This document shows positions 8,863-28,478 of a stretch of 46,001 nucleotides of DNA, in pieces. The notes under the pieces are model-generated. The model was not told the DNA's origin. It ran no database searches and saw nothing but the letters and a program-made list of their open reading frames with translations. Positions within the stretch are counted from its first letter, which is position 1, and each line of letters opens with the position of its first letter. The DNA comes from a virus, in the UHGV virus genome UHGV-0199506. The stretch is one strand, 5' to 3'. The translations under genes and the position numbers were made by a program.

Positions 8863-8866
8863 CAGA

Positions 8867-8892
8867 GGCCCCGCCAGGGGCCTTTTCTTTTT
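8867..8892 (+). terminator. Rho-independent terminator after J (GGCCCC-GCCA-GGGGCC + TTTTCTTTTT)
   Basis: Hairpin plus T-run 5 nt after the J stop codon. Confidence 0.7.
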
Positions 8893-8923
8893 CCAGGGAA
8901 AACCATCCAGGAGCAACTTTATT

Positions 8924-10552: not shown

Positions 10553-10726
10553 CAGAGAACTACTGCTGCGCCACATGCAGTGGTTCGAAGCCGCAGACCT
10601 GATTGTCAAAGGCATGGAAGGCGCTATCGCTGCCAAGACCGTGACCTATGACTTCGAACGTCTGATGGAAGGCGCTAAACTGCTGAAATGTAGCGAGTTT
10701 GGCGACGCGATTATCGCGAACATGTA
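10553..10726 (+). pseudogene. icd: 3' fragment of icd (isocitrate dehydrogenase), last ~57 codons; attachment-site remnant / replacement segment of an icd-integrating prophage
   Basis: Translation [56 protein letters not shown] matches the E. coli Icd C-terminus (..[56 protein letters not shown]). Homology begins abruptly at ~10553, with a stop codon in frame just upstream. e14-family phages are known to integrate in the icd 3' end and carry a substitute 3' end. Confidence 0.8.
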
Positions 10727-10751
10727 ATCTGGCCCCCAGATTATGTCAGAA

Positions 10752-10844: not shown

Positions 10845-11972
10845 TCATAAGGCCACCGTTGTCCACCCCTTCCCACGATCATCATGGTACCTATCCGTTT
10901 GTTGTTGAGTTTTATGTCCAAGTAAATCTTTCGTGTTTATACCCTGGGCTTTATATAACCGCTCGGAAAGCGATCTTTGTTCATGGAAAGTTGCCGGTGT
11001 ACCTTGTCCCCAGTCAATATCTGCACTGTCTCTTGCCTTGCTGAAATTCATGGTCAGTGTTCTGGGTTTCACCTGTGCTCCTCGCTCAGCCTGTGAGGTG
11101 GTTCTAAAGAAATGAACCAAATAAGGGCTTACTGCATAATCCCGGCAACGACTGATTACATCTCGGAGGCTCCAGTTGATTGCGTTGCAACGCAGAGCTA
11201 ATGGTATAGCGATTTTGCTTCCGGTTTTCTCTTGCTCAACGTGTAGATGATCGTCCCAGATGTCCGAGAATTTCATACGGGATATATCACCTAGTCGCTG
11301 TCCTGTTACTATGGCTAAAAGCATGGCGTTCCCCATGTATTTGTGATTTTCATCGGCTATATCAAAAATCTTTTGCCATTCCTCAAGAGTGAGGCGCTGG
11401 CGAGTGATCTTTCTACGAGGTTGTTTAGTTGCTAGTGCAGGGTTATAACCAGGAGGTACTTCTCCCGCATGCTGAGCTTCTTTAAAAACATCTATTAGGA
11501 CAGAGCGAATGACCTGAGCCATTCTGGGTTGTCCCTCCGCTAAATATTCATCAAGAATTTGCGCAACATCTCGAACATTGACAGCGGATATTAATTTCAT
11601 TCCTACCCGTTCCTTAAGCAGAGATACTGGTTTTGCTTTTTGTTTGATAGTGTTTTCTTTAATATCTCCGGACTTCAATCTTTCCTGCTGAATCTTCCAG
11701 TAACGTTCAAGCCAGGTGTTAGTTGATATTGATTTTCCTGAGCTGGTGGAAATTCTGTCAGTGATTGCCATTATCTGGCGGGTTTGTTGTTCCGCCAGTC
11801 TTTTATTTGCTTCAATAGCTATTGCCGTGGCCTCTGCTTCGTCTGTTCCTAGACTATGAAACTTACCAGTTATCGGGTGCTTATAACGCCAGTATACTTT
11901 ATTAACCTTTCTGCTGAAGAGCGGGTATAAATTTGGAATAGATATATTATTTTTACGTGGTCTGGCAGCCAT
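10845..11972 (-). CDS. int: Tyrosine integrase, lambda Int / e14 IntE family
   Basis: 375 aa. The C-terminal catalytic region ...FHEQRSLSERLYKAQGINTKDLLGHKTQQQTDRYHDDRG... matches the lambda Int R..HxxR..Y signature region. The N-terminal part is an arm-binding-type domain. It sits next to the icd fragment. Confidence 0.9.
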   Translation of the reverse strand: MAARPRKNNISIPNLYPLFSRKVNKVYWRYKHPITGKFHSLGTDEAEATAIAIEANKRLAEQQTRQIMAITDRISTSSGKSISTNTWLERYWKIQQERLKSGDIKENTIKQKAKPVSLLKERVGMKLISAVNVRDVAQILDEYLAEGQPRMAQVIRSVLIDVFKEAQHAGEVPPGYNPALATKQPRRKITRQRLTLEEWQKIFDIADENHKYMGNAMLLAIVTGQRLGDISRMKFSDIWDDHLHVEQEKTGSKIAIPLALRCNAINWSLRDVISRCRDYAVSPYLVHFFRTTSQAERGAQVKPRTLTMNFSKARDSADIDWGQGTPATFHEQRSLSERLYKAQGINTKDLLGHKTQQQTDRYHDDRGKGWTTVAL

Positions 11973-12250: not shown

Positions 12251-14389
12251 TCAGTTTTGCATCAATTTTTGCAGCACCTGATTGCCGGCAATTATTCGCT
12301 GCCAGATCGCTGATACATAGCGGGCCTGATGAATAGCATCAGCGAGGGCATTGTGACGAGACCCTTCAAACGGGATCGTTGTTTTGGGGTCGAAGCTAAT
12401 GGCTTGGCCGAGCTCTACCATTGTTCGTACGTCCCGATCGTTCCAGTATTCCCACGGATAATCTTCAGCAATGCAATCGTAAGAAGAACGCAGAATAGAG
12501 TTGTCGAATGACGCACCGTTACCCCATACCTGCGCCTTTTTGCTCCCACCAGCAACATTATCAGAAACAAATTCTCTGAACTGGAGTAATGCATCCTGCA
12601 ACGGGATAGCATCATCATTTACGATCGCAGAGCGTGCTTCGGAGGACTGTCTAAGCCACCAGATAACAGTAGATGGATCGATTACGGCGCCCCAGTTCAC
12701 GGAGGATTCAAGGCATACGACTTTATAGAAACTTTCTCCAATAGAGCCGGTTGCCGGGTCAAAAACAACCGCACCAATAGCGACGATAGGGGCGTTATGT
12801 TTTTTACCCATGGTTTCCAGATCAACCATAACGTGAACATAATCAATTGGCTGATCTTCCTCCTTATTATGAAGACCGGATTCAATATCTACAGAATCCG
12901 TTTGATGAACAACTTCATCTGTTTTTTCTTTTTGGTTAACCTTGCCCGTAACGTCAACAAGACCTTCAATGGAAAATACTCCGTCCCCAATTTTTGAAAC
13001 TTCAGGCTGCCTGGTCTTGGTAAGGTCTTCGGTTACCCACTTCGGATCCGTAGGGTCGCTAACCCCTTCAACATATTCGCCGCGCTCGGCGGCCAGAACC
13101 TGATTAGCGTCCGGACGTTGCTTTTGAGCCTCTTTTACCAGTTCGGCACCAACTGCTTTAATGTCGGAGGAGAGTGTTTCCAGTTTTGCGCTGCTATCCT
13201 CTCCGGCGATTACTTGGTTTGTTGCATCCAGAGTGACTGCAGCAGATGGAATATGTCCCGCCTTGGTAAGCGTCTCAGCGCTCGGGGTATCATGCTTATG
13301 TTCAGTCAGATTCGCGTTGATGTAGCCACGCAACCGATCTGGAAAAGGAGTTATTCCACTGGATGCTTCCCTGATCAGTGCAAAAATCGCTGCACGGGAA
13401 TAATCAAGGATGCCTGGTGTGCTCCGTAATGCTGCAGACCATTCTTTAAATGGACTTTCTTTCTTCTGTACTATTTCCTTCGCGCGGCGGTGGACTGATG
13501 CCGGAAAATTATAGATGTCAAAATCCATAGGCATCGTTGCAAGAGCGATCTCTATATCCAGAGTATCCAGCGAATGCTGATAATCCGGATTGCGGTCAGT
13601 TTTGTTACCGCCGCCAGCATTGGCGCCGGCATCGGTTTTGTTTATTGAGGTGATATAGTTTCCAGCAGCCCATTCCTTTGTAAGGATCCCGCGGTCAATG
13701 TGCGACGTTTCAAGCCACAATTTGGCGAACTGAATTTGCTTGCCGAGCTCATGGCGTTTCCCCACAGGAAATACGCTCTTAAATGCACTGGTAAATTTCC
13801 ACAGGCCAGGCATATCATATTTTTTAAGCTCCGGAATATTTTCTGCCGTCAGCAGCAGATTCTGCACACCGTGATTATCCGTATCCATTTCCATCGCTGA
13901 AAGGCGGTTACGATGAGGAATGCTAATGTGATACACGTGACGCTCGTCGGCCATATACTGGGCAAGCAGCTGCGTGCGGAATGACATTTCCGCCAGGTTG
14001 AAGAGTGCTTCTTCATTGTTCGAATAGTCCTCTTCATCGCTATTTGCAGGAGAGATATCGTTTTCTGGTTTACTGGAGGGCTGTGGTTCAGCAGCCGCTG
14101 GCGCAACGATTTTTTGCCATGTCAGCCCGTCTTCACCACCAAGCTCGTAGCGATCGCACCAGGTGTCATCCAGTACACCTTCTTCCGGTAAGTCATCAAC
14201 GATGAGCCAGTTGGTGCGGATCGGCAGCTGATGGCTGGCGCCGCGGCCAACGTTAATTTCAGCGTCTTCCAGGATGTCCAGGATTTTGCGCTCGGCGCGA
14301 GAATCGGATTTAGCAGAGAACCAGCAGAAGAGACTTTTCGCTTCGTTTGCTTTTGCCTTCGCTTTAATGAGATACGGGTAGTTGTTCAT
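12251..14389 (-). CDS. RecE (exodeoxyribonuclease VIII)-like N-terminal region fused to a DnaQ-like DEDDh 3'-5' exonuclease domain
   Basis: N-terminal segments (IVDDLPEEGVLDDTWCDRYEL; DRGILTKEWAAGNYITSINKTDAGANAGGGNKTDR) resemble what I recall of the RecE N-terminal region. The C-terminal 190 aa carries Exo I (MVDLETMG), Exo II (WGNGASFDNSIL) and Exo III (HNALADA) motifs of the DEDDh superfamily. Confidence 0.6.
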   Translation of the reverse strand: MNNYPYLIKAKAKANEAKSLFCWFSAKSDSRAERKILDILEDAEINVGRGASHQLPIRTNWLIVDDLPEEGVLDDTWCDRYELGGEDGLTWQKIVAPAAAEPQPSSKPENDISPANSDEEDYSNNEEALFNLAEMSFRTQLLAQYMADERHVYHISIPHRNRLSAMEMDTDNHGVQNLLLTAENIPELKKYDMPGLWKFTSAFKSVFPVGKRHELGKQIQFAKLWLETSHIDRGILTKEWAAGNYITSINKTDAGANAGGGNKTDRNPDYQHSLDTLDIEIALATMPMDFDIYNFPASVHRRAKEIVQKKESPFKEWSAALRSTPGILDYSRAAIFALIREASSGITPFPDRLRGYINANLTEHKHDTPSAETLTKAGHIPSAAVTLDATNQVIAGEDSSAKLETLSSDIKAVGAELVKEAQKQRPDANQVLAAERGEYVEGVSDPTDPKWVTEDLTKTRQPEVSKIGDGVFSIEGLVDVTGKVNQKEKTDEVVHQTDSVDIESGLHNKEEDQPIDYVHVMVDLETMGKKHNAPIVAIGAVVFDPATGSIGESFYKVVCLESSVNWGAVIDPSTVIWWLRQSSEARSAIVNDDAIPLQDALLQFREFVSDNVAGGSKKAQVWGNGASFDNSILRSSYDCIAEDYPWEYWNDRDVRTMVELGQAISFDPKTTIPFEGSRHNALADAIHQARYVSAIWQRIIAGNQVLQKLMQN

Positions 14390-15231: not shown

Positions 15232-15502
15232 AGTTATCTCCAGTTAACTCAGTATTAGAATGTGGTTTTGCAATGCGGCGCCGGGTGCCTCCCGGTGACG
15301 GCAGCCAGTTAACAACTACCGCCGACAACTTTTTCCCCACAACGTGTGAATAACCGCCATGTTTACTTTTTTAACTGTGTCGCGTGCGCATAGCCGCATT
15401 CACCGCATTGCAAACCCTACTAGTCGTCATGCCTGTCTTTTCACCACTTCAGGCTCGGTGGTATTCTTGGCGCTCTCACACAGCCAAATAAAAGAGAGCA
15501 AA

Positions 15503-17465: not shown

Positions 17466-18449
17466 ATGGCCCGCATCAGAACAGTTAAACCTGAATTCTG
17501 GACAGATGAGAAGGTGGTGGAATGTTCAATTCCAGCGCGTCTCCTGTTTATCGGGTTGTTCAACTTCGCCAACGATATGGGATGCCTTGAGCGTTCGCCA
17601 AAACGGTTGAAGATGCAAATCTTCCCTGCGGACGCGCTCGATTGCGAACCACTAATACAGGAACTGATTACTCATGGATTACTCATTGAGTATTCAGTGA
17701 ATGATGTCTGCTATTTACAGATTAAAGGTTTCCTTAAGCATCAAAAAATAAACAGGCCTTCGGCCTCAAAAATACCTCTTCCGCCAGAATTCACTGAGTC
17801 TAAGGCAGGAAAGGAAGAAAAGAGAGCTCCTAATCAAGGAGGGCTCAGTGAGGACTCAGTGAATCCTCATGGAGGACTCACTGACGGAAAAGGAAGGGAA
17901 GGGAAGGGAAAAGGATCAAACCCCACTCTCTATGCGCAGGAGAGAAATTTTCCCCAGCAACCTCAGTATCTACCTGGAGTGGATATTCCGATCGGAAAAT
18001 TCACCATGCACGACCTTTGGCTGCCGTCACAGGACTGGCCGCGACTGGCTGCTACCTGGGGTATAGCGCTTCCCGAACCGGCATACCTGCCGACAGAGCT
18101 GGCAGAGTTCATCGCGTACTGGAAATCCGAGGGGAAAGTGTTCACTCAGATTCAGTGGGAGCAGAAATTTGCCCGCAGCGTGATAAGTGCCAGAGCCAAA
18201 TCTAAACCACAACCAGCAACCGGAGGTAAAGGCCATGCAGGAATTCAACCAGCTAACACCGCATCCCGGGCAGTTCAGGAAATTCAGGCAGCCAGAGAGC
18301 GCTGGGAAAAGCAAAACGGACTTGCTGGCGGCGGATACGGCTTGGCGGCTATGGACGGTAATGGGGGAGATATTCTCGAACCGGTGGACCCAGAAGAACG
18401 GGGCGGCGCCCTCGGATATGTGGATTGCCCAGATTGGATCGATGAGTGA
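17466..18449 (+). CDS. Replication initiation protein, O-like / DUF1376 (YdaU-like)
   Basis: The N-terminus MARIRTVKPEFW.. is the conserved start of the DUF1376 family found at the O position of Rac-like prophages. It has an AAGAGG RBS. Its 3' 215 nt overlap the P-like gene in another frame. Confidence 0.6.
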   Translation: MARIRTVKPEFWTDEKVVECSIPARLLFIGLFNFANDMGCLERSPKRLKMQIFPADALDCEPLIQELITHGLLIEYSVNDVCYLQIKGFLKHQKINRPSASKIPLPPEFTESKAGKEEKRAPNQGGLSEDSVNPHGGLTDGKGREGKGKGSNPTLYAQERNFPQQPQYLPGVDIPIGKFTMHDLWLPSQDWPRLAATWGIALPEPAYLPTELAEFIAYWKSEGKVFTQIQWEQKFARSVISARAKSKPQPATGGKGHAGIQPANTASRAVQEIQAARERWEKQNGLAGGGYGLAAMDGNGGDILEPVDPEERGGALGYVDCPDWIDE

Positions 18450-18906
18450 TGCCCAGATTATGCTGGTCTGCAGGCAGTGTATGGAGCGCTGTGCGGCGGG
18501 AAACACATGGCCGCCGGATCTTGCTGAGTTCGTTGCGCTGGTGTCAGCCAGCGGTGCTAATCCATTCAATCTGACATCCGATGCAGTGATGGCGGAGTAC
18601 AAACGCTGGAGAAACGAATCTTATCGATACTCGGGCAGCGACAAATACCCATGGAAACAGGATGTTCTGTATCACATTTGCATTGAGATGCGCAGAACTG
18701 GAGTTGAGAGGAACCTGACGGAGGGAGAGCTGAAAAAACTGGCAGAAAACTTACTCACGAAATGGACCAAACGCCTGGCTAACGGGTTTTCGATTCCCCC
18801 GATTCGTCGGCAGTTGGCAGCACCGAGGCATCCAGCAGGGCCGACGCCAGCGCAGGTTCTGATGGAAGAGTACAAACGCCGCAAGGCGGCAGGTTTAACC
18901 AAGTAA
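18235..18906 (+). CDS. Replication protein P-like (DnaB helicase loader), 223 aa from MQEFNQ
   Basis: Collinear similarity to lambda P: WPPDLAEFVALV ~ PSPGQFVAWC; YSGSDKYPWKQDVLYHICIEM ~ YPDAESYPWKSNAHYWLVTNL; LTEGELKKLAENLLTKWTKRLANGFSIPP ~ LTDAELRRKAADELVHMTARINRGEAIPEP. A strong GGAGGT RBS lies 8 nt before the ATG at 18235. The ORF-track start at 18187 has no RBS. Confidence 0.75.
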   Translation: MQEFNQLTPHPGQFRKFRQPESAGKSKTDLLAADTAWRLWTVMGEIFSNRWTQKNGAAPSDMWIAQIGSMSDAQIMLVCRQCMERCAAGNTWPPDLAEFVALVSASGANPFNLTSDAVMAEYKRWRNESYRYSGSDKYPWKQDVLYHICIEMRRTGVERNLTEGELKKLAENLLTKWTKRLANGFSIPPIRRQLAAPRHPAGPTPAQVLMEEYKRRKAAGLTK

Positions 18907-19360: not shown

Positions 19361-19847
19361 TTATGCCTTAAACAGAATCAACTGCAGCTGGTACGGGATG
19401 TCAAAGTTAAGTTTAATTATTGCGGGGTTAGGCAAAGCTAAGATGTCCACTGAGTGCCAACAGCGGACGTTGGAGTACCAGAGAGCTTCTAAAAGTGAAA
19501 GGCATAGATTATGCTGAATACTTATACATCAATGTGGTCTCACAGACTTGAAGCAACTTAAGATTTAATAATTTATATAACAAAAATGTCAGCAGACATT
19601 TTTGTTAACTAAGAGGTCATTCCGAGGCAGAAGGACTTCAATCTTACATGTGGCCACTGAATGAGCTCCCCTTCCCGTACTAATGCAGAATGGCCATTAA
19701 CAGGCGGCAGACAATTCTAACGGAACTAACGAAAAATCATATCATTGACTGCTTCGGCTTTTCATCAACCATCACCACAGCGTTGACTGAGCATCACTTA
19801 GGCATCATATTAGGTGCCTATCTAACTTCAAACGCAACGACAAGCTC

Positions 19848-20369
19848 ATGACTATTCTAGAAGAGGTCCAAAACGAAGCCTGGTTTGCTCTGGTATCTAT
19901 CTACACACATCAGGAGTTAATGGGGACTCTGGCATCCAGCCCAACGAGATATGAAATGGGCAATCAGCTTATCGCGCTAAATGCGATAGTTGAATTATTA
20001 ATTCTGCGTATTGCTCGTTTGGCAGATAGTACCAAGAAAGTACGTAATGCTAAGATGCTGTTGGAGAAAGGTACATATCCCGGTACATATGCCGACGTTA
20101 AATTAGCAGCAGAGCGGTTTATGTCATTTGCAGCCCCTATCGTCAAGATTAGACATGAAGAGGTTGCGCACATGAAGCCCGGCATTGTGAGCACCTATGG
20201 ACCTCGAATTATACCTACAGAAGCTTTGAGGGCTACTGAGTCCCTTATAGAACTCATTGATGTCGCCTACGATCAACAGCAGTCTTACTCATACAGAGTA
20301 GGCTCCTGCGAACCTGAAGTTGATTTAAGAGCATCTGTGGTGGCAGGTAAAAGAGTGTTCGTAAAATAA
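19848..20369 (+). CDS. Hypothetical protein (173 aa) in the low-GC island; contains a single Rx5H (RHEEVAH) motif
   Basis: No recognisable family. The ORF is ~38% GC against ~55% for the phage backbone. The HEPN-type motif is short and could arise by chance. Confidence 0.4.
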   Translation: MTILEEVQNEAWFALVSIYTHQELMGTLASSPTRYEMGNQLIALNAIVELLILRIARLADSTKKVRNAKMLLEKGTYPGTYADVKLAAERFMSFAAPIVKIRHEEVAHMKPGIVSTYGPRIIPTEALRATESLIELIDVAYDQQQSYSYRVGSCEPEVDLRASVVAGKRVFVK

Positions 20370-20399
20370 ATTAGTTAAACTCAAGTTCATGAGGGAAAC

Positions 20400-21209
20400 A
20401 TGATTAAACAAACAGATGTCGATTTTCTATACGGAACATTTAAAGATTTTATAGTTGAAGACAAGCAAAACCTTTTAAAGAATTTTAGCGAAAGATTTCA
20501 GCTAGCGGTTGCAATGGAAGTCTCCTTTACTAATAGTAAGTCTGAACTTTACAATCGAGTTCATGCGAAGACCATCAAGTTATCGGAGCTGTGGTACTGC
20601 TTTGAATTGCTTTCTACTGCTACGGAATATGGGTTTGGTAATGCAAAGGAAAAATCAGAAGAACAAATCAATAAGGAATGGCTGGATACGCTGAGAGTTT
20701 CTGCGATAGGCAAGATTGAACCCGAAAAGCCTAGAAAGAAAAATCTATTTGTTAATGTAGACTTAACTTACAACCCAGTCGGAAAGGCAAGACTGATCAA
20801 TGAAGAACACTTTACAGGACGGTGGTTCTTATCTTCATACCAAGATGTTTTGTGGGCATTTTCGATAACTAGAAGCATTCCCGACACGCTCCCAGATGAT
20901 GTGGCAAAGGACGCATTATCTCACTACCTAAAGATTCTAATATCGCATGCTCAAGGTGAGCAAGAACAGTTCCTAAATCGTGGTTATAATGCACTGATGG
21001 GTAATAGTGCGGATATGCCAAAATCCTCCAATATACTATCATTTATTTATGCTTTGAGGTGTAGCTATGTTCATCAAGGTGAATTACCAGACAGTTCGCA
21101 TATGCCAATCGAGTACAAAGAATTTATTTTAGATGAATGCATTAAGTTCCTAATAAGTTATTGCTCTTTGGCTTATTCTACAGTTATAGATGAGATCTAT
21201 TTTCATTAA
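20400..21209 (+). CDS. Hypothetical protein (269 aa), low-GC island, probably co-transcribed with 19848..20369
   Basis: It starts 31 nt after the upstream stop and has a GAGGGAAAC RBS. The C-terminal RCSYVH is an Rx4H motif. No recognisable family. Confidence 0.4.
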   Translation: MIKQTDVDFLYGTFKDFIVEDKQNLLKNFSERFQLAVAMEVSFTNSKSELYNRVHAKTIKLSELWYCFELLSTATEYGFGNAKEKSEEQINKEWLDTLRVSAIGKIEPEKPRKKNLFVNVDLTYNPVGKARLINEEHFTGRWFLSSYQDVLWAFSITRSIPDTLPDDVAKDALSHYLKILISHAQGEQEQFLNRGYNALMGNSADMPKSSNILSFIYALRCSYVHQGELPDSSHMPIEYKEFILDECIKFLISYCSLAYSTVIDEIYFH

Positions 21210-21361
21210 CCAGACATTTTGGTCCGGTTTCTGGAGATATAATAATTTTATGCAAACATAGTAGATGCAACAGTTGAGTTCAGCTGTTATTGTAAGCACC
21301 CCTTAAAAACAGTGCATACTCTTTTAGAGATCTACCCGTCTCTCTTTACACAGAGGCAAAA

Positions 21362-21427
21362 GTCCGCTTCTCGCTCATAGCGGACCAGAGGACCAGTGGG
21401 TAGGTTCGCTTCGTGCCAAAAGCAGAC
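21362..21427 (+). repeat. Two-hairpin repeat element, copy A (HP1 GTCCGC-TTCTCGCTCATA-GCGGAC; HP2 loop GTGCCAA)
   Basis: Read directly. The first hairpin has perfect 6-bp arms and a conserved 12-nt loop. It is related to copies at 22381 and 24246. Confidence 0.6.
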
Positions 21428-21560
21428 ATTTGATAAGTCTTTGTTACTTATAAGGGTACAAGCCAACTGATATGATAGACTGTTTAATAGCTAGTGTGTT
21501 AACAAGTCAAAAAATGTAGAATTTAATTCCTAGCCACTTCTGAATACATATGGATGCTGT

Positions 21561-22289
21561 ATGAGTAACCCATTCACTCTTGAAATACTTCAGGCTATCA
21601 ACGATTGGCAGCGCAGTACGACTAAAAATCGTGGTAAAAAATTAGAGACTCTATGTGTAAATCTTCCCGCTCAATACAAAACTGTTGATTTTGCCTGCTA
21701 CAGGAAAATAAATTTGCAGAAGGATGGTGTATTTAGCATGTTCGCCCACTATCGTCTCCCGGAAAGAAGTTCCTCATGGTCTTCTTCAGTCGACGTCGTC
21801 AAAAATTTTAAACACGGTGTATCGTTAAATATCGTCGAACAATCTTTTATCTATCAAACTATTCCAACTCCAAATGAAATCATTCTTAATCTTATAGCAG
21901 TCTACAATTCTTCTGATTTTCAAAGTGCTCTTAGCCTACATAGAAAGGATATTGATAATGTTCATCTAGGTATTGATAAATATGGTAATAGCCAACTTGA
22001 AGTGGTCTTAAAAAAGGATTTTGTTACACACAATGACATATACATGCTGGGTGGTCGTTCAAGCGCTTTCTGTGTTTCTCACTCTCCAGTCATCCAAAAG
22101 ATGTCATTAAGTTACTTGGATTACGATATCAGAAAAAATAAAGTTATCACTTTCAAATGGTTAAGCCATGAAATAACACGACGAATCATTGATAGGATTC
22201 TCAGGAAGTACCCTCAACCTTTCAATGCTTATGGGAAGAGCTACGGATATATCATCCCTAAGAAAAGAAAGAAGAAATCTAGAAGGTGA
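21561..22289 (+). CDS. Hypothetical protein (242 aa) with a basic C-terminal tail (KKRKKKSRR), low-GC island
   Basis: Stand-alone ORF flanked on both sides by copies of the two-hairpin repeat. Confidence 0.4.
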   Translation: MSNPFTLEILQAINDWQRSTTKNRGKKLETLCVNLPAQYKTVDFACYRKINLQKDGVFSMFAHYRLPERSSSWSSSVDVVKNFKHGVSLNIVEQSFIYQTIPTPNEIILNLIAVYNSSDFQSALSLHRKDIDNVHLGIDKYGNSQLEVVLKKDFVTHNDIYMLGGRSSAFCVSHSPVIQKMSLSYLDYDIRKNKVITFKWLSHEITRRIIDRILRKYPQPFNAYGKSYGYIIPKKRKKKSRR

Positions 22290-22380
22290 CTTATAAACCT
22301 AACTGGGTTGATCTGCTTCCCGTTAATTAACACTCCGCAATGCAAGTAACATCCCCTGGTTGGTGATAACAATTACCATC

Positions 22381-22441
22381 GTCCGCTCCTCGCTCATAGC
22401 AGACTTGTTGTGGTTTCCTACGTGTCTGGAGCAAACGCTGC
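22381..22441 (+). repeat. Two-hairpin repeat element, copy B (GTCCGCTCCTCGCTCATAGCAGAC ...)
   Basis: 22/24 identity to copy A over hairpin 1. It lies between convergent genes. Confidence 0.55.
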
Positions 22442-22635
22442 TAACATAAAGGACAACCACTATTTAGATCAGTTCAGAAAAACTTCGTTCTGAACTATCA
22501 AAAAGCTTTGATCCAAAGTACGGAAACCCTCAATAGCTTAAAGTATATATCCTGGGTGCAGGTAATGTTGACCCGACCCAGGTGAGTTAATAGGTGATAA
22601 CTAAATGACGCCTGTTAAATATTTGTTGAAATATA

Positions 22636-23301
22636 TTAGGCATGCTTTTTTTTACCAACAACCACATATGAACTGCCCGCTTTGCTCCATGAGCTTAATA
22701 CTGATAAATTGTTATCCAAGCAAATTTTACTCACGACATCCACATCCAATAAACCATAGTAAGATGCGTTGCGAGAGTTTTGGTATATATATCCATGTAA
22801 ATGCTTAATACCCCTCTCATACTTCTTAAAATATGAGCTTTTAAATTGATTGACAATCATTGCCTCTCCATCATCCTTTAATAAATCTCTAATTCCGCTG
22901 ATAATTTTGTCAATTGTAGATTTACATGGAATGGCGGAAAGCACGTTTGCGCAAAGTATAAAATCATAACGACTAGTTATTTTATGCATGTTTTCAAAGG
23001 GAACTACATTAGCTTTTCTATAGTTATTAGCTACATATTGTGGAATTGTGGTTTGTACACCTCTTATAATTTGTACTCTTTCTAGCTGCTTTCTGGAATC
23101 TAAAAAGGTCACAGTTTCAAATTTATCGACCAATTGTTCAGAATATCTAAGTTTCCCACATCCAAAATCAAGGGCGCTGCCATTTTTTAGAGAGTGTTTG
23201 ATATGATCGCAGAGATAGTTAGATGGCATAGTATGAGGTTTGGCTGCATTTTCTGAACGTATTGTTATTCCATTCACTTCGTAGTTCAAAGTTAACTCCA
23301 T
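22636..23301 (-). CDS. Class I SAM-dependent methyltransferase (221 aa), not a DNA-methyltransferase type
   Basis: Motif I 'ALDFGCGKLRY' (hh(D/E)hGxGxG) and a Rossmann-fold pattern. No DPPY/NPPY/SPPY motif IV, so it is probably not a DNA MTase. 31% GC. Confidence 0.6.
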   Translation of the reverse strand: MELTLNYEVNGITIRSENAAKPHTMPSNYLCDHIKHSLKNGSALDFGCGKLRYSEQLVDKFETVTFLDSRKQLERVQIIRGVQTTIPQYVANNYRKANVVPFENMHKITSRYDFILCANVLSAIPCKSTIDKIISGIRDLLKDDGEAMIVNQFKSSYFKKYERGIKHLHGYIYQNSRNASYYGLLDVDVVSKICLDNNLSVLSSWSKAGSSYVVVGKKKHA

Positions 23302-24024
23302 TTAAGAAATATTGTTTTTATTAAAAAATTCTATTATTTTATCATCAGGTATTTGTCTTACTTGGCTTTCGGTTCTTGGCTTAACAGATGCTATAAAAAT
23401 AAGAAAATTGAAGACGACGAGAAAAATAACCCACAACCAAACATTATTTAAAGAGCCTGTAACAGAGAATAGATTAGTTAATTTAGCAAAGCTTATTACT
23501 ACAACAGTAATAAATGCAATCACCGTATGCTCAAAGAAAACCCAGAAATAATAAACTTTGTTCCAAAAAAGTTCAACGTAATGTTTATCTTTTAACTCTT
23601 TAACTTCTGGGTAATACAATTTACTCATTACCTTGTAAGATTCATCACTAGATAATTTCCTCGTAACGTTCGCGATTTTTGCCAATGGCTGAACAATTAA
23701 ATAATTATCCCATGCTTTTCTTATGCCAACTACTTTTGCTACATTGTTATGCAGATCTAAAGCCCCGCTAACAATGGACCAAAAAATTGAAAATGCAATT
23801 GGTAAAACTCCGAATGTTAATATCCACTTAATAAACTCTTCGTAGTCTTTAATGGGTGGGATGTATTTGGCATTAATGCCAACCAATGGCATGTAGCCAA
23901 AAATAACTAATGATAGATAAAATAGAAATGTAGTAATAAAAGTTGCCTTATGAAGCATCGGCAACATTTCATTGTAACTTTTTGGTGGTTCTAACATTTT
24001 ACTCTCCATGCATTCCAAAAGCAT
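23302..24024 (-). CDS. Polytopic membrane protein (240 aa, ~5-6 predicted TM helices), immediately upstream of and contiguous with the methyltransferase gene
   Basis: Long hydrophobic stretches (FITTFLFYLSLVIFGYMPLVG; ILTFGVLPIAFSIFWSIVSGAL; VIAFITVVVISFAKL; VWLWVIFLVVFNFLIFIAS). Its stop abuts the MTase start, forming an operon. 30% GC. Confidence 0.55.
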   Translation of the reverse strand: MLLECMESKMLEPPKSYNEMLPMLHKATFITTFLFYLSLVIFGYMPLVGINAKYIPPIKDYEEFIKWILTFGVLPIAFSIFWSIVSGALDLHNNVAKVVGIRKAWDNYLIVQPLAKIANVTRKLSSDESYKVMSKLYYPEVKELKDKHYVELFWNKVYYFWVFFEHTVIAFITVVVISFAKLTNLFSVTGSLNNVWLWVIFLVVFNFLIFIASVKPRTESQVRQIPDDKIIEFFNKNNIS

Positions 24025-24245
24025 TCATTATCAATAATCACATGGCTCAACTAACGCATTTAAAGCTTAATTACCGCTAGTTTCTTAATTGAACACTGCG
24101 ATTTTATCTACATTTTTTTGATTGTTCTAGTTCTCAAAATGACCTAATGAGCTGATATCTATTCTAATCGCACCCACGCTAGCATCTGTAATACATTAAG
24201 CAACCAAATTCCATCATCAGTACCGATGTAAAAATCAGCCTCGAT

Positions 24246-24310
24246 GTCCGCTTCTCGCTCGAAGCAGACCTTCATCCCATTAAGATTGTCCGCTCTGTGC
24301 CAAGAGCGGA
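24246..24310 (+). repeat. Two-hairpin repeat element, copy C (GTCCGCTTCTCGCTCGAAGCAGAC ... GTCCGCTCT-GTGCCA-AGAGCGGA)
   Basis: Hairpin 1 is 22/24 identical to copy A. Hairpin 2 has a perfect 8-bp stem with a GTGCCA loop, homologous to the A-copy hairpin 2. Confidence 0.6.
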
Positions 24311-24483
24311 ATCTGGAGCGCCAGAGGTAGCAACGTTTCTTATCAACGGTGTTGATCACCACAAAAATGACTGTATCCCTGTGATAGCGGATTTCGTCCT
24401 TTGTGGAGAAAAGATCAATCTAAACATGAGCATGGGTTAGCGAAAAGTGGCATTAAGAACTTGAACATTTTACCTAACAGGTA

Positions 24484-24503: not shown

Positions 24504-24522
24504 CTTGAGTGAGGAGCTAGTT

Positions 24523-24756
24523 ATGAAAGTGGAAATCACAATTGATCGCCAAAAAAAATTGCCGGATGGCGCTGTGCCTGCTCTGGAGAAGGAGCTACTG
24601 CGGCGATTGGATCAAAACTTTAATAACTGCAGTCTTGTGATTCGTCGGGCCAGCTCCGATGGGTTGACCGTGCTTGGTGGAATGGACGGAGATAAAAAAC
24701 GTATTGAGGAAATCCTGCAAGACACTTGGGAAAGCGCTGATGACTGGTTCTGTTAA
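24523..24756 (+). CDS. dinI: DinI-family protein (77 aa)
   Basis: MKVEITIDRQKKLPDGAVPALEKELLRRL...DKKRIEEILQDTWESADDWFC compares with E. coli DinI MRIEVTIAKTSPLPAGAIDALAGELSRRI...DKQRISEILQETWESADDWF. It has a GAGGAG RBS. The ORF-track start at 24505 is a short extension. Confidence 0.85.
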   Translation: MKVEITIDRQKKLPDGAVPALEKELLRRLDQNFNNCSLVIRRASSDGLTVLGGMDGDKKRIEEILQDTWESADDWFC

Positions 24757-24818
24757 GTTGAGGTCCAGTGGCTTGCCTGGTTTATTTTGAGGATTTTGCT
24801 GTGAGTAAAAAACAAGAA

Positions 24819-25058
24819 ATGCCGAACACCGGCTATGCAATCATCAGATGCGACGATGGGGTGATCGTTGCTCGTCTGACATCCTTTCCTGTGTGTGAGC
24901 GCGCTCTGATGTACCGGCGCGGCGACACTGTTTCGTTTATGCCTTTGCAGCCGGATGAGATAGTGGGGACTCTCTCTCTTTTTTCACAGATGATTGAAAA
25001 GGCTAAGTCTGGAGTTGGTTACCAGGTTCCCCCTGATTCTGTTACAATCCCGTCATAG
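24819..25058 (+). CDS. Hypothetical small protein (79 aa) downstream of dinI; candidate antirepressor
   Basis: MPNTGYAIIRCDDGVIVARL... No recognisable family. It sits in the LexA-box operon. The antirepressor role is an inference. Confidence 0.35.
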   Translation: MPNTGYAIIRCDDGVIVARLTSFPVCERALMYRRGDTVSFMPLQPDEIVGTLSLFSQMIEKAKSGVGYQVPPDSVTIPS

Positions 25059-25098
25059 GCCTGAACAACCTATACCTGCTGCGTCGCGGAGAGAAGCC

Positions 25099-25491
25099 AT
25101 GACGCAAACCCCCGAAGTATCAAAATCCCATCAGACTGGTGCTCCTTCATCGAGCGCCGGTTTGCTTTCGTCTTCAAAACTAACTTTTCGACAGCAGGAA
25201 GTTTTCGATCTGCTGGTGGCCTACATCAATCAGCATGGCTACCCACCTACGCTAACTGAGCTAGCCGATATGCTCGGTGTTAGCTCGTCTAATGCTGTCC
25301 TGTTGCATCTGCGTGCGTTAGAGAGAAAAAATTTTATAAAACTCTCTCGCCGCGTCTCCAGAGGAATTTCCATCGTCGGGCGAAAGGAGCCTATGCTCGC
25401 CGTGCTGCTGCTGCAGGAAATGATCGCTGAAGAACCCGGCGCGCGTGAAAGAGCGATTGAGTTTTTGCGACTGTTCGGTGATCAGCCATGA
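25099..25491 (+). CDS. LexA-like winged-HTH DNA-binding protein lacking the S24 autocleavage domain (131 aa)
   Basis: '[66 protein letters not shown]' compares with LexA '[66 protein letters not shown]'. It has an S/P-rich N-terminal tail and a GGAGAG RBS. Confidence 0.65.
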   Translation: [130 protein letters not shown]

Positions 25492-25691
25492 AGAAAAGTT
25501 GGTTTTTACACGAGCAACTTTCAGAGGCTGAGGCTACAGAGCTGGTGGAGCGATACCGTAAAAATAACTGTGTGGTTGAGAAAAGCTTGTCCAGAGACTT
25601 TACATCGTGGGAGATCCGCGTGCTGTTGCCGGAATCGAAGAAGCCGCCACGGATTGACAGGACCTACATACAGAAGATGTGGAGGGACTGA
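25488..25691 (+). CDS. Hypothetical protein (67 aa), translationally coupled at both ends (ATGA / TGATG)
   Basis: Overlapping start/stop codons with both neighbours, read directly. Confidence 0.4.
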   Translation: MKKSWFLHEQLSEAEATELVERYRKNNCVVEKSLSRDFTSWEIRVLLPESKKPPRIDRTYIQKMWRD

Positions 25692-26749
25692 TGCGAGCTT
25701 TGCTTAACGTCGATATTGCACGCCATCTTGGAATTGTGCTGCTTAAGCCGGGTAGTGAATTAATGCCGTTATTCGGTGCCGGCCGGGTTCTTGTTGAAAT
25801 GCCGCCGGCAAGCATGAAAAAGATACCCAGTGGACGTCTTCCTGATGCCCGGCAGCCGTTGGCAGAGGATCCCACCCTTCATGTGTTCTTTTCCGATGAG
25901 CGCGTGATCCAGGCTGCTGGTGGGTTATCAGCGCTTGAGCGTTGGCTTAATTACCGGCATAAGGCATGCCAGTATCCTCACTCCGAATACCACCACGCTG
26001 AGTTGGTAACCATGCGGTACCCGCCCGGTGCGCTTCTGGTGTGCTGGTACTGCGACAATAATTTGCGTGAACAGACTACAGCGGAACTCCAGGATCTGGC
26101 GCTGAAAAACGTCATCGACTGGGTTATTGATACTGTACTGATCGCCCTTGGCTACAACAAAGAACGTTCTCTTTCTCTCGCTGAGCTGTGTTGGTGGGCT
26201 GTGCAGTCTGGTATTGCCGACACCATTACGGAGACCATGGCGCAGCGCGCTCTGCGTATGCCGGAGGAGCCATTTTTATCAGTTTATAAAGAAAGCGACA
26301 TTATTCCGATGCCAGCGGCCACCAGCGTTCTGCAGGAGAAAGTGAAACCTGCAGGAGTTGCGACGAAGCGCAGGAATAACGAATTCCTGCAGACCGAGCA
26401 GCAGGCGGAGATTCTGGCATTAAAGGTGGATCCTGAATCACCAGAGTCGTTCATGCTGCGACCGAAGCGGCGCCGTTGGACCTGTGAGCAGTACACTCGT
26501 TGGGTTAAAACGCAACCCTGCGAGGGCTGCCGCCGCCCGGCAGACGACCCGCACCATATCATCGGGCATGGTATGGGCGGTACAGCAACAAAAGCACATG
26601 ACCTCTTCGTGATCCCACTGTGCAGAGTGTGCCACGAAGAATTACATACCGATCTTGCGGCATTCGAGAAGAAATACGGCACGCAGTTAGAACTGTTTGC
26701 GCGTTTCCTGGATCGGGTGCTGGCGATCGGCGCAATTATAAAAGCATAG
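25691..26749 (+). CDS. DUF968-family protein with a C-terminal HNH-like zinc-finger nuclease motif
   Basis: C-terminal 'CEGCRRPADDPHHIIGHGMGGTATKAHDLFVIPLCRVCHEELH' (CxxC...HH...CxxCH) is typical of lambdoid nin-region DUF968 proteins. Start at MRALLNVD, with a GGAGGGA RBS. Confidence 0.7.
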   Translation: MRALLNVDIARHLGIVLLKPGSELMPLFGAGRVLVEMPPASMKKIPSGRLPDARQPLAEDPTLHVFFSDERVIQAAGGLSALERWLNYRHKACQYPHSEYHHAELVTMRYPPGALLVCWYCDNNLREQTTAELQDLALKNVIDWVIDTVLIALGYNKERSLSLAELCWWAVQSGIADTITETMAQRALRMPEEPFLSVYKESDIIPMPAATSVLQEKVKPAGVATKRRNNEFLQTEQQAEILALKVDPESPESFMLRPKRRRWTCEQYTRWVKTQPCEGCRRPADDPHHIIGHGMGGTATKAHDLFVIPLCRVCHEELHTDLAAFEKKYGTQLELFARFLDRVLAIGAIIKA

Positions 26750-26769
26750 TGTATGGAGCATTGAGCAGT

Positions 26770-27468
26770 ATGAACCTACAAAATCTGGAATATACCCGTA
26801 TTGAAGTGCGTCGAGCGTTGTTGGATTTATCCGGTGCAACAAAGGGACAACTCGAGGCATTTAGCGAGAATCCACCAGCAGACAAAAATAAAAATCCACG
26901 GTGCTCTCGCCATCTTGTCGATCTGGATGGGGGAATCGGTTGTGGCCCGTCGGTGGTTAAGGCACTGACTACTCCAGTTTATGTGATTGAGACCCGTAGC
27001 CGCCGTCGACCAATGCCGCCCATCAATGATATTGAATTCGGTTATTCGCCGTGGCGGCGCGCTGTAAACCTGCTGGAAGAACATCACCAGGCATGGGTGC
27101 GCTATTGCTATGGCTTCGATCTAAATTTCCGTTACCAGACGTTGATGTGCGAACACGTCTGGACTGAATACCAGAGCTATCAAGTGGGCAGGGCGATCCA
27201 ATCGAGAGTAATAAAAAAGCTTGTGGGACTGGTCTGGTTGGCTGGTCAGGAGGTTGCAGCGACCCGGAATAATGAAACGTATAAAGCCTACGCTGGCGCA
27301 GCTCTGGCACGTATGGTTTCAGTTGACCGCTCAACCTGGAAAAGGGTTTATGCCGGGCACTGGGAACGGCTTAAAAGGGCATTCGTTGAGATGGATAGCA
27401 ATGCATTGCAAATCATCTACAGATATCATGAGCAAATAGAAGACACCAAAACGGAAAAATGTGACTAA
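26770..27468 (+). CDS. Late antiterminator Q-like protein (approx. 232 aa from MNLQNLEY)
   Basis: Sits immediately upstream of a PR'/tR'-like region and the lysis cassette. Cys-rich segment NPRCSRHLVDLDGGIGCGPS. The ORF-track start at 26620 overlaps the DUF968 gene, so an internal start was chosen. The family call is positional plus weak motif evidence. Confidence 0.5.
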   Translation: MNLQNLEYTRIEVRRALLDLSGATKGQLEAFSENPPADKNKNPRCSRHLVDLDGGIGCGPSVVKALTTPVYVIETRSRRRPMPPINDIEFGYSPWRRAVNLLEEHHQAWVRYCYGFDLNFRYQTLMCEHVWTEYQSYQVGRAIQSRVIKKLVGLVWLAGQEVAATRNNETYKAYAGAALARMVSVDRSTWKRVYAGHWERLKRAFVEMDSNALQIIYRYHEQIEDTKTEKCD

Positions 27469-27626: not shown

Positions 27627-28478
27627 ATGAAAACAGATAGCCCAGAAAATCCATTTGAACGCAATGATTTTTCGATGGATGACTTCCACCACTACCTGAG
27701 GGAGTTTGATAAAGCGGTATGTGAAGCGAATGCTGTAAGTCAGGGGGTTGGAGTGCGAATGGCTGAAGCTTATAAAGGGTGGTCGACTTATATTTTTTCA
27801 CGAATTTGTATTCATGCATCAATAATGATTTCTAACGTACCCAAATCTAGGTGGGCGAAGAGGGATTATGATTTTTGGGATTTTTCTTCTATTGCAACCC
27901 ATGTAAGAGCGATTATCGAAGCTGAGTTGTTGTTTATGTATTTAGCTGAGAATCCAGATTCAACTGATGAGTGGTCAGCAAAGTTGAATGTTATGCACAT
28001 GAATGATTGTGCAAAGAGAATTGAGTTATTTACATCCAGTGGTAATACAAAAGCGTTGAGATTTTATAATGAACAACAAGAAATAATTACTGAGAGGCTT
28101 AGTAATAACCCATTTTTTATGACTCTTGATCAAGGAACCAGAAAGCGATGCTTGGCTGGAAAAGCCCTTACGATCCCTAATCGAGATGAGTTACTGATTA
28201 AACAGGGGAAAGATCCAAAGCAATTTAAGATTATGTTTGATTTTTTATCTCATTATACGCATATACTTCCTATGTCATATTATAAAATGGAGCCAAACGG
28301 GAGAGGTACCGGTTGTTTTAATAACTATGATTTTGGTTATATGATTATGGGTGTTTTTATTTGTACTGAATCTTTGACTCAATGCACAAATAGATTGGTA
28401 GAGCTTTTTCCTGATGTTAAAAGATTGAGAAAAGGAACTAAATCAAAATTTACGTTAGGGCCTAAACCTACAAAATAA
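27627..28478 (+). CDS. Hypothetical protein (283 aa), low-GC moron between tR' and the holin gene
   Basis: ~37% GC against ~55% for flanking late genes. It sits at the classical late-operon cargo position (where stx/bor-type morons reside). No recognisable family. Confidence 0.5.
   Translation: MKTDSPENPFERNDFSMDDFHHYLREFDKAVCEANAVSQGVGVRMAEAYKGWSTYIFSRICIHASIMISNVPKSRWAKRDYDFWDFSSIATHVRAIIEAELLFMYLAENPDSTDEWSAKLNVMHMNDCAKRIELFTSSGNTKALRFYNEQQEIITERLSNNPFFMTLDQGTRKRCLAGKALTIPNRDELLIKQGKDPKQFKIMFDFLSHYTHILPMSYYKMEPNGRGTGCFNNYDFGYMIMGVFICTESLTQCTNRLVELFPDVKRLRKGTKSKFTLGPKPTK

Follow-up and report, generated by a model that had tools for sequence, protein, structure and literature searches.

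Inverted pairs of a 24-bp site at cassette boundaries in prophages, plasmids and chromosomes of Enterobacterales as candidate sites of cargo exchange

The hairpin repeats that separate the gene cassettes of a lambdoid prophage island are probably recombination sites that work as double-stranded DNA in cassette exchange, with a putative enzyme provided in trans. In the window, the 46,001-nucleotide stretch of UHGV virus genome UHGV-0199506 that was analysed, they define a three-cassette hotspot between the replication genes and Q of the prophage. By comparing sequences, we document the architecture and distribution of the sites, the mobility of the cassettes and the position of the breakpoints, and we infer a sequence-specific recombinase, of the tyrosine or serine type, that would break and join the sites in trans. 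The sites themselves are already known, being annotated in GenBank entries for the Z region of phage P2, while their wide distribution and array structure seem under-appreciated. The repeats that the original prediction had described from the letters of the window were confirmed, and its interpretation of them is partly supported.

Site architecture and the island in the window

The window holds a Klebsiella-type lambdoid prophage with a lambda-type Int, P, DUF968 and Q, and the sites delimit three low-GC cassettes between its replication genes and Q (Table 1); GC content is 0.32-0.41 in the island (0.37-0.41 in cassette 1) vs ~0.52 in the backbone. The first hairpin, predicted in three copies (A, B and C), was recovered at all three places, and we call it the F site (24 bases, consensus GTCCGCTYC-TCGCTC-RWAGCRGAC); 0 matches were expected by chance in 100 shuffles. 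Copy B had been drawn as far as 22441, and while its first hairpin stands, 22405-22441 lies outside the repeat. The second hairpin, described in copies A and C, is indeed present there as a 24-base site with a GTGCCA core, the V site, whose start follows that of F by 42 nt in both copies. An additional V site at the left end of the island (GTCCACTGAGTGCCAACAGCGGAC) had been missed, and the chance expectation for V is again 0. The second hairpin is not an independent motif, however, since the reverse complement of F fits the V pattern with just 2 mismatches, both of them core bases (identity of V and inverted F, 20-21/24); F and V are inverted variants of a single 24-mer, distinguished by the central 6 bp.

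Table 1. Sites, spacers and cassettes of the island in the window (F copies are compared with copy A)
Feature	Position	Strand	Remarks
V site, left island boundary	19445..19468	+	1 mismatch to V pattern; homology to L014 stops exactly at 19468
Cassette 1	19469..21361	+	ORFs 19690-19851, 19848-20369 (weak HEPN_AbiU2) and 20400-21209, all +
F site, cassette 1 right end (copy A)	21362..21385	+	pattern match; 0 mismatches
F-V junction spacer, 18 nt	21386..21403	+	42-nt start spacing
V site, cassette 2 left end	21404..21427	+	pattern match
Cassette 2	21428..22380	+	ORF 21561-22289, 242 aa, without family match
Solo F site, cassette 2 right end (copy B)	22381..22404	+	no V partner after it; 2 mismatches
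Cassette 3	22405..24245	-	class I SAM methyltransferase 22636-23301 and membrane protein 23302-24024, both -
F site, right island boundary (copy C)	24246..24269	+	3 mismatches; homology to L007, L014, L070 and L079 begins at 24244
Junction spacer, 18 nt, CTTCATCCCATTAAGATT	24270..24287	+	matches loose consensus CTTCAGCTCAGTnAGCyT
V site, last member of F.V junction	24288..24311	+	kept together with dinI-side backbone

Each site is a dyad in which two 9-bp arms (GTCCGCTyy / rrAGCGGAC) enclose a 6-bp core, and on the cargo side the arm reaches ~12 bp, with AAN preceding F and NTT following V. There are two core types, GTGCCA in V and TCGCTC in F (inverted, GAGCGA), and their central G12 and C13 are invariant. 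When sites were anchored by their arms alone, 314 of 328 cores were exactly TCGCTC or GTGCCA and none was a V/F hybrid, a near-invariance that is inflated by the retrieval of the loci through exact F or V patterns. Inverted arms of 9 bp (12 bp on the cargo side) around a 6-bp core agree with the generic layout of a tyrosine or serine recombinase site, in which a short asymmetric core separates two inverted arms of 9-13 bp.

Distribution of the sites and possible roles other than exchange

V and F sites are widespread in Enterobacterales, where phages of the P2-like and lambdoid types carry them, as do phage-plasmids, plasmids, islands and chromosomes. A cassette takes the form V-cargo-F, and tandem arrays, linked by junctions of F, ~18 nt and V, are frequent. 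This layout, with F-to-V junctions that mostly measure 42 nt from start to start, was found in 153 viral and 84 genome loci, and in all of these every site within an array has the same orientation; the junction spacer is 18 nt long in 38 of 80 distinct junctions. The ~2.6 Mb of retrieved loci contain 197 distinct cassettes with 228 ORF clusters, including TIR, RES/HEPN, DUF4209 and mSLOG/DuOB genes, and the cargo ORFs show no strand bias (182 on + vs 164 on -). The prediction that the sites keep one orientation whatever the flanking genes do also holds within the window, where all copies are on the + strand and cassette 3 is encoded on the - strand.

An alternative is that the hairpins act in RNA: they could form a small RNA, direct the processing or stability of transcripts, or serve each inserted gene as an atypical terminator or insulator. 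This would agree with the folding of individual copies (z-score -4.6 for copy A on the - strand, about -2.6 to -2.9 for copy C) and with the sites pointing in the direction of backbone transcription in P2-like and most lambdoid backbones, but the stems show no compensatory changes. Pairing was found in 76.6% of cells vs 77.3% in shuffles (460 of 500 shuffles reach the observed value), the covariation score was 0.116 vs 0.128 in shuffles (481 of 500 at least as high), and F position 4 varies independently of F position 21, as does F position 21 of V position 4. The stem-preserving covariation that was to be looked for is thus not above the shuffled level, and this lack of covariation implies that the arms are conserved as sequence and not as pairs. 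Moreover, the cargo genes lie on both strands, the sites run against the flanking genes in Klebsiella phage ST13-OXA48phi12.3 and E. coli CP049101, and the strand on which pairing is better is not the same for V and F, as inverted DNA repeats would have it. Rfam searches (gathering and E-value thresholds) gave no match at the sites, and tRNA and tmRNA scans found nothing there. We consider a function in RNA very improbable, and the earlier suggestion of a small RNA or RNA-processing element is not borne out. An intrinsic terminator was also rejected, as the scan made no call at any copy and TTTT follows the stem only in copy A, on the - strand. The absence of a T-run noted in the original prediction was confirmed, no terminator-like site overlapping any copy, and together with the near-invariant cores this upholds its argument for sequence-specific recognition rather than a generic terminator.

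The sites could also be operators at which a DNA-binding protein, be it a regulator, a silencer or an insulator, keeps foreign genes under control, with recombination as a by-product. A dyad site whose central bases are invariant and whose arms do not covary suits a protein that binds duplex DNA; however, no co-occurring regulator candidate was found among the ORFs near the array ends, the genes flanked are unrelated and span all kinds of replicons as well as distant genera, and regulation does not predict two heterotypic cores to the left and right of each cassette. We regard this reading as improbable.

The sites could also be a selfish palindromic repeat of the host, of the REP/BIME/REPIN kind, that is moved by a RAYT-like transposase and lies beside cargo by chance. 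In form, the F-spacer-V junction is an inverted palindrome pair of ~66 nt that resembles a BIME or REPIN doublet and is able to form a single long hairpin, but its copy number is far too low and the sites consistently bound variable cargo. F was found in 2325 of 5426 E. coli genomes and is absent from 57% of them, with a median of 1 and a maximum of 6 copies in the positive genomes, and a survey of one genome per species (185,579 species) gave 84 matching stretches, with at most 4 from any record. A host repeat moved in this way is highly improbable, and the original prediction, for which a REP/ERIC-type repeat scattered genome-wide would have been fatal, withstands these counts.

Cassette exchange and the position of the breakpoints

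The proposal that the repeats are cassette boundaries at which cargo is exchanged is strongly supported by comparison with related elements. A related prophage (L014) is 95-97% identical to the window as far as 19468 and once more from 24244 on, and carries three unrelated cassettes in between, so that the same backbone is seen with other cargo. Among 81 F instances, we distinguished 45 left-flank classes and 32 right-flank classes in 51 combinations, with homology that stops at the site edges, and 43 pairs of cassettes were found that are 97-99.9% identical while both of their outer flanks are unrelated, the identity breaking within the sites. A megablast search of the island against the phage collection gave matches solely in the backbone, to the right of 24387.

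The breakpoints can be located more closely from pairs that share only one flank, which are not independent of each other: in both V and F, positions 1-9 track the left flank and positions 17-24 the right flank, placing the breakpoints between positions 9 and 16. As left arms go with left flanks and right arms with right flanks, the crossovers map to the 6-bp core. In each cassette, V and F bound the cargo as heterotypic inverted repeats, and we propose that exchange between replicons would pair V with V and F with F, with a crossover within the core, so that the cargo-side arm would move with the cargo and the outer arm would remain with the backbone. One outcome would be replacement of a cassette; the other would be the addition of a circle bearing an F-spacer-V junction, which could give rise to tandem arrays.

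Some events in the island nevertheless took place off the sites, which counts against our reading. The gene pair of cassette 3 has counterparts of 83-84% identity in 151 E. coli genomes, lying in a lambdoid prophage and adjoining the replication genes in both contexts inspected, and the homology to these E. coli relatives begins at 22566-22618, away from any site.

The behavior of the arms bears on the possibility that the cargo is carried by a non-autonomous transposon, MITE-like or composite, with V and F as its terminal inverted repeats. Their inverted arrangement around the cargo and the extension of the P2 repeat to ~100 bp would both be consistent with a transposon, but the cargo ORFs examined included no transposase, and a transposon would carry its whole repeat, whereas here only the inner arms move with the cargo. 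As the outer arms remain on the backbone, we reject this model and attach next to no probability to it. In phage P2-EC46, the bases immediately outside V and F are inverted (AATCTGACA / TGTCAGATT) and not direct.

Also against our reading, no recurrent recombinase family was found when ORFs within 3.5 kb of the array ends were clustered, a search that returned backbone families only. Of ~280 loci, 2 have a lambda-type integrase in the vicinity and ~10 a Hin-type invertase, none of them within cassettes, and the 15 kb around a Pantoea plasmid array contain no annotated recombinase; the genes that neighbor the sites are phage and accessory genes. The sites might then be passive homology anchors, kept since cassettes with common sequences spread more easily, with exchange carried out by RecA or by Red/RecET-type systems on ~24-30 bp of identity. 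RecA-dependent recombination can be supported by a short minimal length of identity, and the shared block of AAN + 24 bp + NTT is close to that minimum. The prophage in the window encodes an exonuclease VIII-like protein, which would fit such a mechanism, as would the lack of a dedicated recombinase in the array neighborhoods. Breakpoints within the 24-bp block are expected under homologous recombination as well, and so are uniform cores and arms if common 'adapter' sequences merely help cassettes to spread.

Passive anchoring, however, leaves unexplained both the dyad symmetry and the existence of exactly two core types, and V/F hybrid cores are absent despite the similarity of V and inverted F. 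In one backbone class, the left arm of V has been swapped for an unrelated sequence (AGCAGCCCT), and yet this class has taken up 9 different cargos and right arms with at most 7 bp of shared sequence at the joint, which is insufficient for RecA- or Red-type homologous recombination. The sites are also carried by P2-like phages, which are not known to encode a general recombinase. We consider homology anchoring unlikely, and exchange by a putative recombinase acting in trans on the V and F cores remains our preferred reading.

P2-like and lambdoid prophages hold hotspots of anti-phage genes that are by now intensively mined, yet how cargo enters and exits these hotspots is seldom addressed. The V/F sites provide a precise, sequence-defined boundary of the cassettes and a simple search key for new ones, and they tie the hotspots of unrelated phage families, plasmids and chromosomes into a single exchange network. 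A dedicated recombinase, should there be one, would fill a gap in mobile-element biology and be a new tool-like enzyme; should there be none, the sites would be a striking example of a selfish 'adapter' sequence.

Relation to known systems

The closest precedent is the variable Z/fun locus of P2-like coliphages, where V and F belong to the inverted repeats annotated on its left and right sides (GenBank AJ512680/AJ512676, entries that we take to be those of Nilsson, Karlsson and Haggard-Ljungquist, Mol Biol Evol 2004). At their inner ends, the annotated Z repeats of P2-like phages carry these sites: in P2-EC46, the left repeat ends in V (GTCCGCTATGTGCCAAGAGCGGAC, 92-115) and the right repeat starts with F (CTTCGCTCCTCGCTCAAAGCAGAC, 3166-3189), and there are 2 differences over 24 positions between the V site at 24288 in the window and that of P2-EC46. 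In P2, V at 15423 and F at 17021 bracket the Z region, and neither site is present in the P2 TO region or in P4. The passage of a review that cites Nilsson et al. 2004 states that the repeats at the P2 locus enable site-specific recombination (PMC8987985), so the element and its proposed role, site-specific exchange of foreign genes, are the same as here. As in the window, low-GC foreign genes are flanked that differ between similar phages, as the cargo of L014 differs from that of the window. The P2 locus, however, lies between tail genes G and FI and is a single flanked locus, whereas the island in the window belongs to a lambdoid prophage, where it separates the replication genes from Q, and forms a three-cassette array with F.V junctions. 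Rousset 2022 makes no mention of the repeats, and a full-text literature search for the site sequences returned no relevant paper.

The original prediction likened the repeats to integron attC sites. Like V/F arrays, integrons hold tandem arrays of promoter-poor, very diverse cassettes of 0.4-4 kb, with imperfect palindromes of ~60 nt between them that can fold as one hairpin, and CALIN arrays, which are attC clusters without an integrase, resemble V/F arrays in having no integrase nearby. An IntI integrase, which in integrons lies with attI next to the array, was not found beside V/F arrays (ORFs within 3.5 kb of the ends), and the boxes at the ends of attC, R'' RYYYAAC and R' GTTRRRY, occur in 3 and 2 of 82 V/F junctions, respectively, and never together. 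An integron cassette has one site and is mostly co-oriented with its neighbors, whereas a V/F cassette has two heterotypic sites and cargo on either strand, and the V/F crossover maps to the center of each 24-mer, in contrast to G/TT on one edge of attC. Since V/F arrays have neither attC motifs nor an integrase close by, and their cassettes are not co-oriented, the comparison holds only as an analogy.

The pdif modules of Acinetobacter plasmids are flanked by inversely oriented XerC/XerD sites. They are likewise discrete accessory modules with short inverted dyad sites, found on many replicons with no attached recombinase gene, and their enzyme is presumed to act in trans. The best ungapped alignments of dif, cer and psi with the V/F arms gave 10-13 matches in 28-29 aligned bases, which is the random level, and pdif modules share sites with their neighbors, whereas each V/F cassette owns a pair with two core types. 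REP, BIME and REPIN elements are also intergenic inverted doublets of short GC-rich palindromes, but REP/BIME elements number in the hundreds of copies, in contrast to the 0-6 copies per E. coli genome here, which are accessory and linked to mobile elements.

The sfx sites of the Rci recombinase (R64/IncI shufflon) have a 7-bp core, GTGCCAA (PMC4176322), within an arm-core-arm layout of ~31 bp in which one arm is conserved and the other variable (PMC4176322, PMC11852207, PMC5430464). This core equals the V core plus the next base, V reading GTGCCA followed by A or G, and in V/F as in sfx one arm, here that on the cargo side, is better conserved and the other replaceable. Identity with sfx was nonetheless rejected, as the 7-bp core alone matches and the arms differ: the conserved right arm of sfx (TCCGGTNNGTGG) is unrelated to RAGCGGACNTT of V/F, and overall identity is 12/30. 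Rci inverts segments inside the single pilV locus, unlike the proposed V/F exchange between replicons, and the core match, which was noticed post hoc, may be due to chance.

Tentatively, V/F might represent a second integron-like, integrase-less cassette system of Gammaproteobacteria, in which a recombinase supplied in trans would act on two heterospecific core sites of 24-30 bp, shuttle defence and accessory genes among P2-like and lambdoid phages, phage-plasmids, plasmids, islands and chromosomes, and build tandem arrays, in effect a natural form of recombinase-mediated cassette exchange. As an engineering method, recombinase-mediated cassette exchange uses heterospecific lox or FRT sites, whose common arms and incompatible cores on either side of a cassette allow swapping from one molecule to another while blocking excision or inversion between its ends. 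With their shared arms and two core types, the V/F sites would be the natural counterpart of this lox/FRT exchange, served by a putative enzyme.

Dyad sites and cassettes in the window

The 24-mer GTCCGCTTCTCGCTCATAGCGGAC (hairpin 1) was found on the + strand at 21362, 22381 and 24246, with 0, 2 and 3 mismatches, respectively (0 expected in shuffles), and a hairpin with a GTGCCA loop starts at 21404 and 24288, each 42 nt downstream of a hairpin 1 start. The original prediction of a repeat in three copies held, the copy at 22381 being without the second hairpin, and a further GTGCCA-loop hairpin at 19445 (0 expected by chance) was absent from it. Since hairpin 1, when reverse-complemented, matches the hairpin 2 pattern with 2 mismatches, the two are a single dyad in opposite orientations, with different 6-bp centres. 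We named the sites by this core, F for TCGCTC and V for GTGCCA.

Features of the window
Feature	Position	Strand	Remark
2938-aa ORF	46-8862	+	left end of window
Tail-fibre gene, S74 chaperone domain	8735-10420
50-aa ORF, isocitrate dehydrogenase-like	10575-10727	+
Lambda-type integrase	10845-11972	-
Exonuclease VIII N-terminal segment and Rv2179c-like 3'-5' exoribonuclease domain	12251-14389	-	one 712-aa protein
cI-type repressor			prophage gene
DnaT/O-like and lambda-P-like replication genes	17466-18906
V	19445	+	island start
Cassette 1	between V19445 and F21362
F-18 nt-V junction	F21362, V21404	+	between cassettes 1 and 2
Cassette 2	between V21404 and F22381
F, solo	22381	+	between cassettes 2 and 3
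Cassette 3	between F22381 and F24246	-
Methyltransferase and membrane-protein pair	22636-24024	-
F-18 nt-V junction	F24246, V24288	+	then backbone
DinI and LexA DNA-binding-domain protein	24505-25491
DUF968	25679-26749
Antiterminator Q	26620-27468
283-aa ORF	27627-28478	+	between Q and holin
Lysozyme			prophage gene

In 153 viral and 84 genome loci, the arrangement that recurs is V, a cargo of 0.4-4 kb and F on the same strand. Such units frequently stand in tandem, as V F V F V F V F V in one retrieved locus (L222; further examples L199, L264 and L232), and F-to-V junctions mostly measure 42 nt from start to start. The spacer is mostly 18 nt in 80 distinct junctions, with the loose consensus CTTCAGCTCAGTnAGCyT, and towards the cargo the consensus of the sites is longer, by AAN before F and NTT after V. 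The core was exactly of the V or F type in 314 of 328 arm-anchored sites, a count that exact-pattern retrieval biases upward, and none of the 328 had a V/F hybrid core. In the 197 distinct cassettes extracted (median 1.47 kb), 346 ORFs form 228 clusters; with the sites as reference, 182 ORFs are on the + strand and 164 on the - strand. Examples of cargo are LysR, NUDIX, DUF7380/DUF4209, TIR, trypsin-like and RES/HEPN proteins, and mSLOG/DuOB cargo was seen in a Pseudidiomarina chromosome, where the surroundings hold no phage genes.

The predicted gene content identifies a lambdoid prophage, with a backbone that matches Klebsiella phages at 95-97% rightwards of 24387. Between the replication genes and dinI, GC is 0.32-0.41 versus ~0.52 in the backbone, and the six ORFs there have weak or absent family matches, among them a weak HEPN_AbiU2 match, a class I SAM methyltransferase and a membrane protein. 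The last two form a pair 83-84% identical to one in 151 complete E. coli genomes, which in the two contexts inspected adjoins the replication genes of a lambdoid prophage, after a SMEK-domain gene; in E. coli CP049101 the whole island is flipped relative to the replication genes. Homology to the window starts at 22566-22618, away from any site, so the cassette has undergone internal remodelling as well.

Elsewhere, the 283-aa ORF (GC ~0.39-0.44; no Pfam or PADLOC match and no flanking V/F sites) is probably another moron. The 50-aa ORF is similar to the C terminus of isocitrate dehydrogenase (Pfam Iso_dh 306-348 of 348, E 4.8e-4, a match below the family cut-off) and, lying between the tail-fibre gene and the integrase, has the appearance of an icd 3' end duplicated at an attachment site between two tandem prophages. 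The 2938-aa ORF, which precedes the tail-fibre gene, is presumably part of an adjacent prophage or element.

Evidence for exchange at the site cores

In L014, a related prophage, similarity to the window runs as far as 19468, where V19445 ends, and resumes at 24244, two bases ahead of F24246, with three unrelated cassettes between the equivalent positions; matches of L007, L070 and L079 to the window likewise begin at 24244. Among 81 F instances, 45 left-flank and 32 right-flank classes occurred in 51 combinations, with as many as nine different cargo flanks next to a single backbone flank. Both outer flanks were unrelated in 43 of 117 near-identical cassette pairs, and identity broke inside the 24-mers. 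When pairs with only one flank in common, which are not independent, were used for a linkage map, positions 1-9 tracked the left flank and positions 17-24 the right flank in V and F alike, placing the breakpoints in the core. On this evidence, which is comparative throughout, the repeats were rightly proposed as cassette boundaries.

In one backbone family (L124, L230, L088, L269, L071, L246, L258, L231 and L210), the left arm of V has given way to AGCAGCCCT, which forms the 3' half of an upstream GC hairpin, AGGGCTGC-AAC-AGCAGCCCT. This V still precedes nine different cargos with differing right arms, so the joints formed on at most 7 bp of shared sequence. Together, these sequence comparisons argue for exchange by core-directed breakage and joining and not by general homologous recombination. 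A transposon model is rejected by the exchange data, as it would require the complete terminal repeat to travel with the cargo.

The alternative that the repeats act as RNA was unsupported. Pairing among 130 distinct sites was 76.6% versus 77.3% in column shuffles, their covariation score was below the shuffled mean, and the F4/F21, V4/V21 and F21/V4 combinations were as expected under independence; the suggested search for stem-preserving co-variation thus gave nothing above shuffles. No Rfam match, tRNA or terminator signature was found at the sites, and cargo orientation relative to them was random. The sites run with backbone transcription in P2, mEp460 and the window and against flanking genes in Klebsiella phage ST13-OXA48phi12.3 and E. 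coli CP049101. The favourable fold z-scores of the copies at 21362 and 24246 arise because the sites are inverted repeats.

Distribution and relation to the P2 Z/fun repeats

Exact-pattern scanning of viral contigs located F in 80 and V in at least 120. With one genome for each of 185,579 species, F occurred in 84 stretches, from genera including Klebsiella, Kluyvera, Citrobacter, Pantoea, Erwinia, Yersinia, Morganella, Pectobacterium and Rahnella, and also Pseudidiomarina and Alteromonas. BLAST with a 30-mer placed F in P2, P2-like phages, the lambdoid phages mEp460, Tritos and Evi, and Klebsiella phage records of ~110-120 kb, which we take to be phage-plasmids. F was present in 704 plasmid records and in 2325 of 5426 complete E. 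coli genomes; genomes with F had it at a median of 1 and at most 6 places. A host repeat of the REP/ERIC type, scattered genome-wide, had been named as the finding that would refute the original prediction, and this distribution rules it out. Other contexts were a CP4-like island, an island adjoining tRNA-Pro and a Pantoea megaplasmid array holding lac genes and acetyltransferases. In viral loci such as L005 and L015, a Chi sequence, GCTGGTGG, lies ~45 nt 3' of F in the common backbone right-flank class 'tagaaggttagc...'.

The GenBank Z-region records of P2-EC46 and P2-EC30 presumably come from Nilsson et al. 2004, whose title reportedly names site-specific recombination. In both, V is the exact end of the annotated 'left inverted repeat' and F the exact start of the right repeat; in P2 itself, V at 15423 and F at 17021 lie on either side of the Z region, and the site scan found neither in the P2 TO region or in P4. 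In a passage on that study, a 2022 review (PMC8987985) states that the inverted repeats flanking fun enable site-specific exchange. By sequence, the element in the window and the inverted repeats of P2 Z/fun are one and the same, although in the window the phage family and hotspot are different and the sites form a multi-cassette array. In P2-like backbones the inverted repeat extends beyond the sites as AATCTGACA / TGTCAGATT(T) (80-91 and 3190-3200 of the P2-EC46 locus, L081), an extension missing from lambdoid copies.

Candidate mechanism and known systems

Each site resembles the core site of a recombinase: inverted arms enclose a short, asymmetric core, and the central GC is invariant. V and inverted F have common arms and differ at two core positions (GTGCCA versus GAGCGA), so the two ends of one cassette would not recombine together. 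Exchange of V with V and F with F between replicons would swap a cassette, and the observed arrays would result if circles with an F-spacer-V junction integrated, as they could at either site. Neighbourhood clustering of the array surroundings, searched for a recombinase, gave backbone genes only. A lambda-type Int was near arrays in 2 and a Hin-type invertase in about 10 of ~280 loci, and neither was found inside cassettes. The Hin-type serine recombinase, the sole recombinase family recurring near arrays, is encoded 90-1900 nt from the outermost site (L037, L159, L174, L204 and six more loci) and is probably the tail-fibre invertase of the backbone. The enzyme, if one exists, must act in trans.

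Tested for membership, the V/F sites fell outside attC, Xer sites, REP elements, terminators and transposon ends. They merit attention for their arrays, their presence in several types of replicon, the logic of their two cores and the enzyme that is missing. The core of sfx, the site of the Rci shufflon recombinase, is GTGCCAA (PMC4176322), which equals the V core plus the next base, and sfx likewise has one conserved and one variable arm; its arms, however, are unrelated to those of V and F, and the core match may be due to chance. By analogy, V/F cassettes would work similarly to integron arrays, pdif modules and engineered cassette exchange with heterospecific sites.
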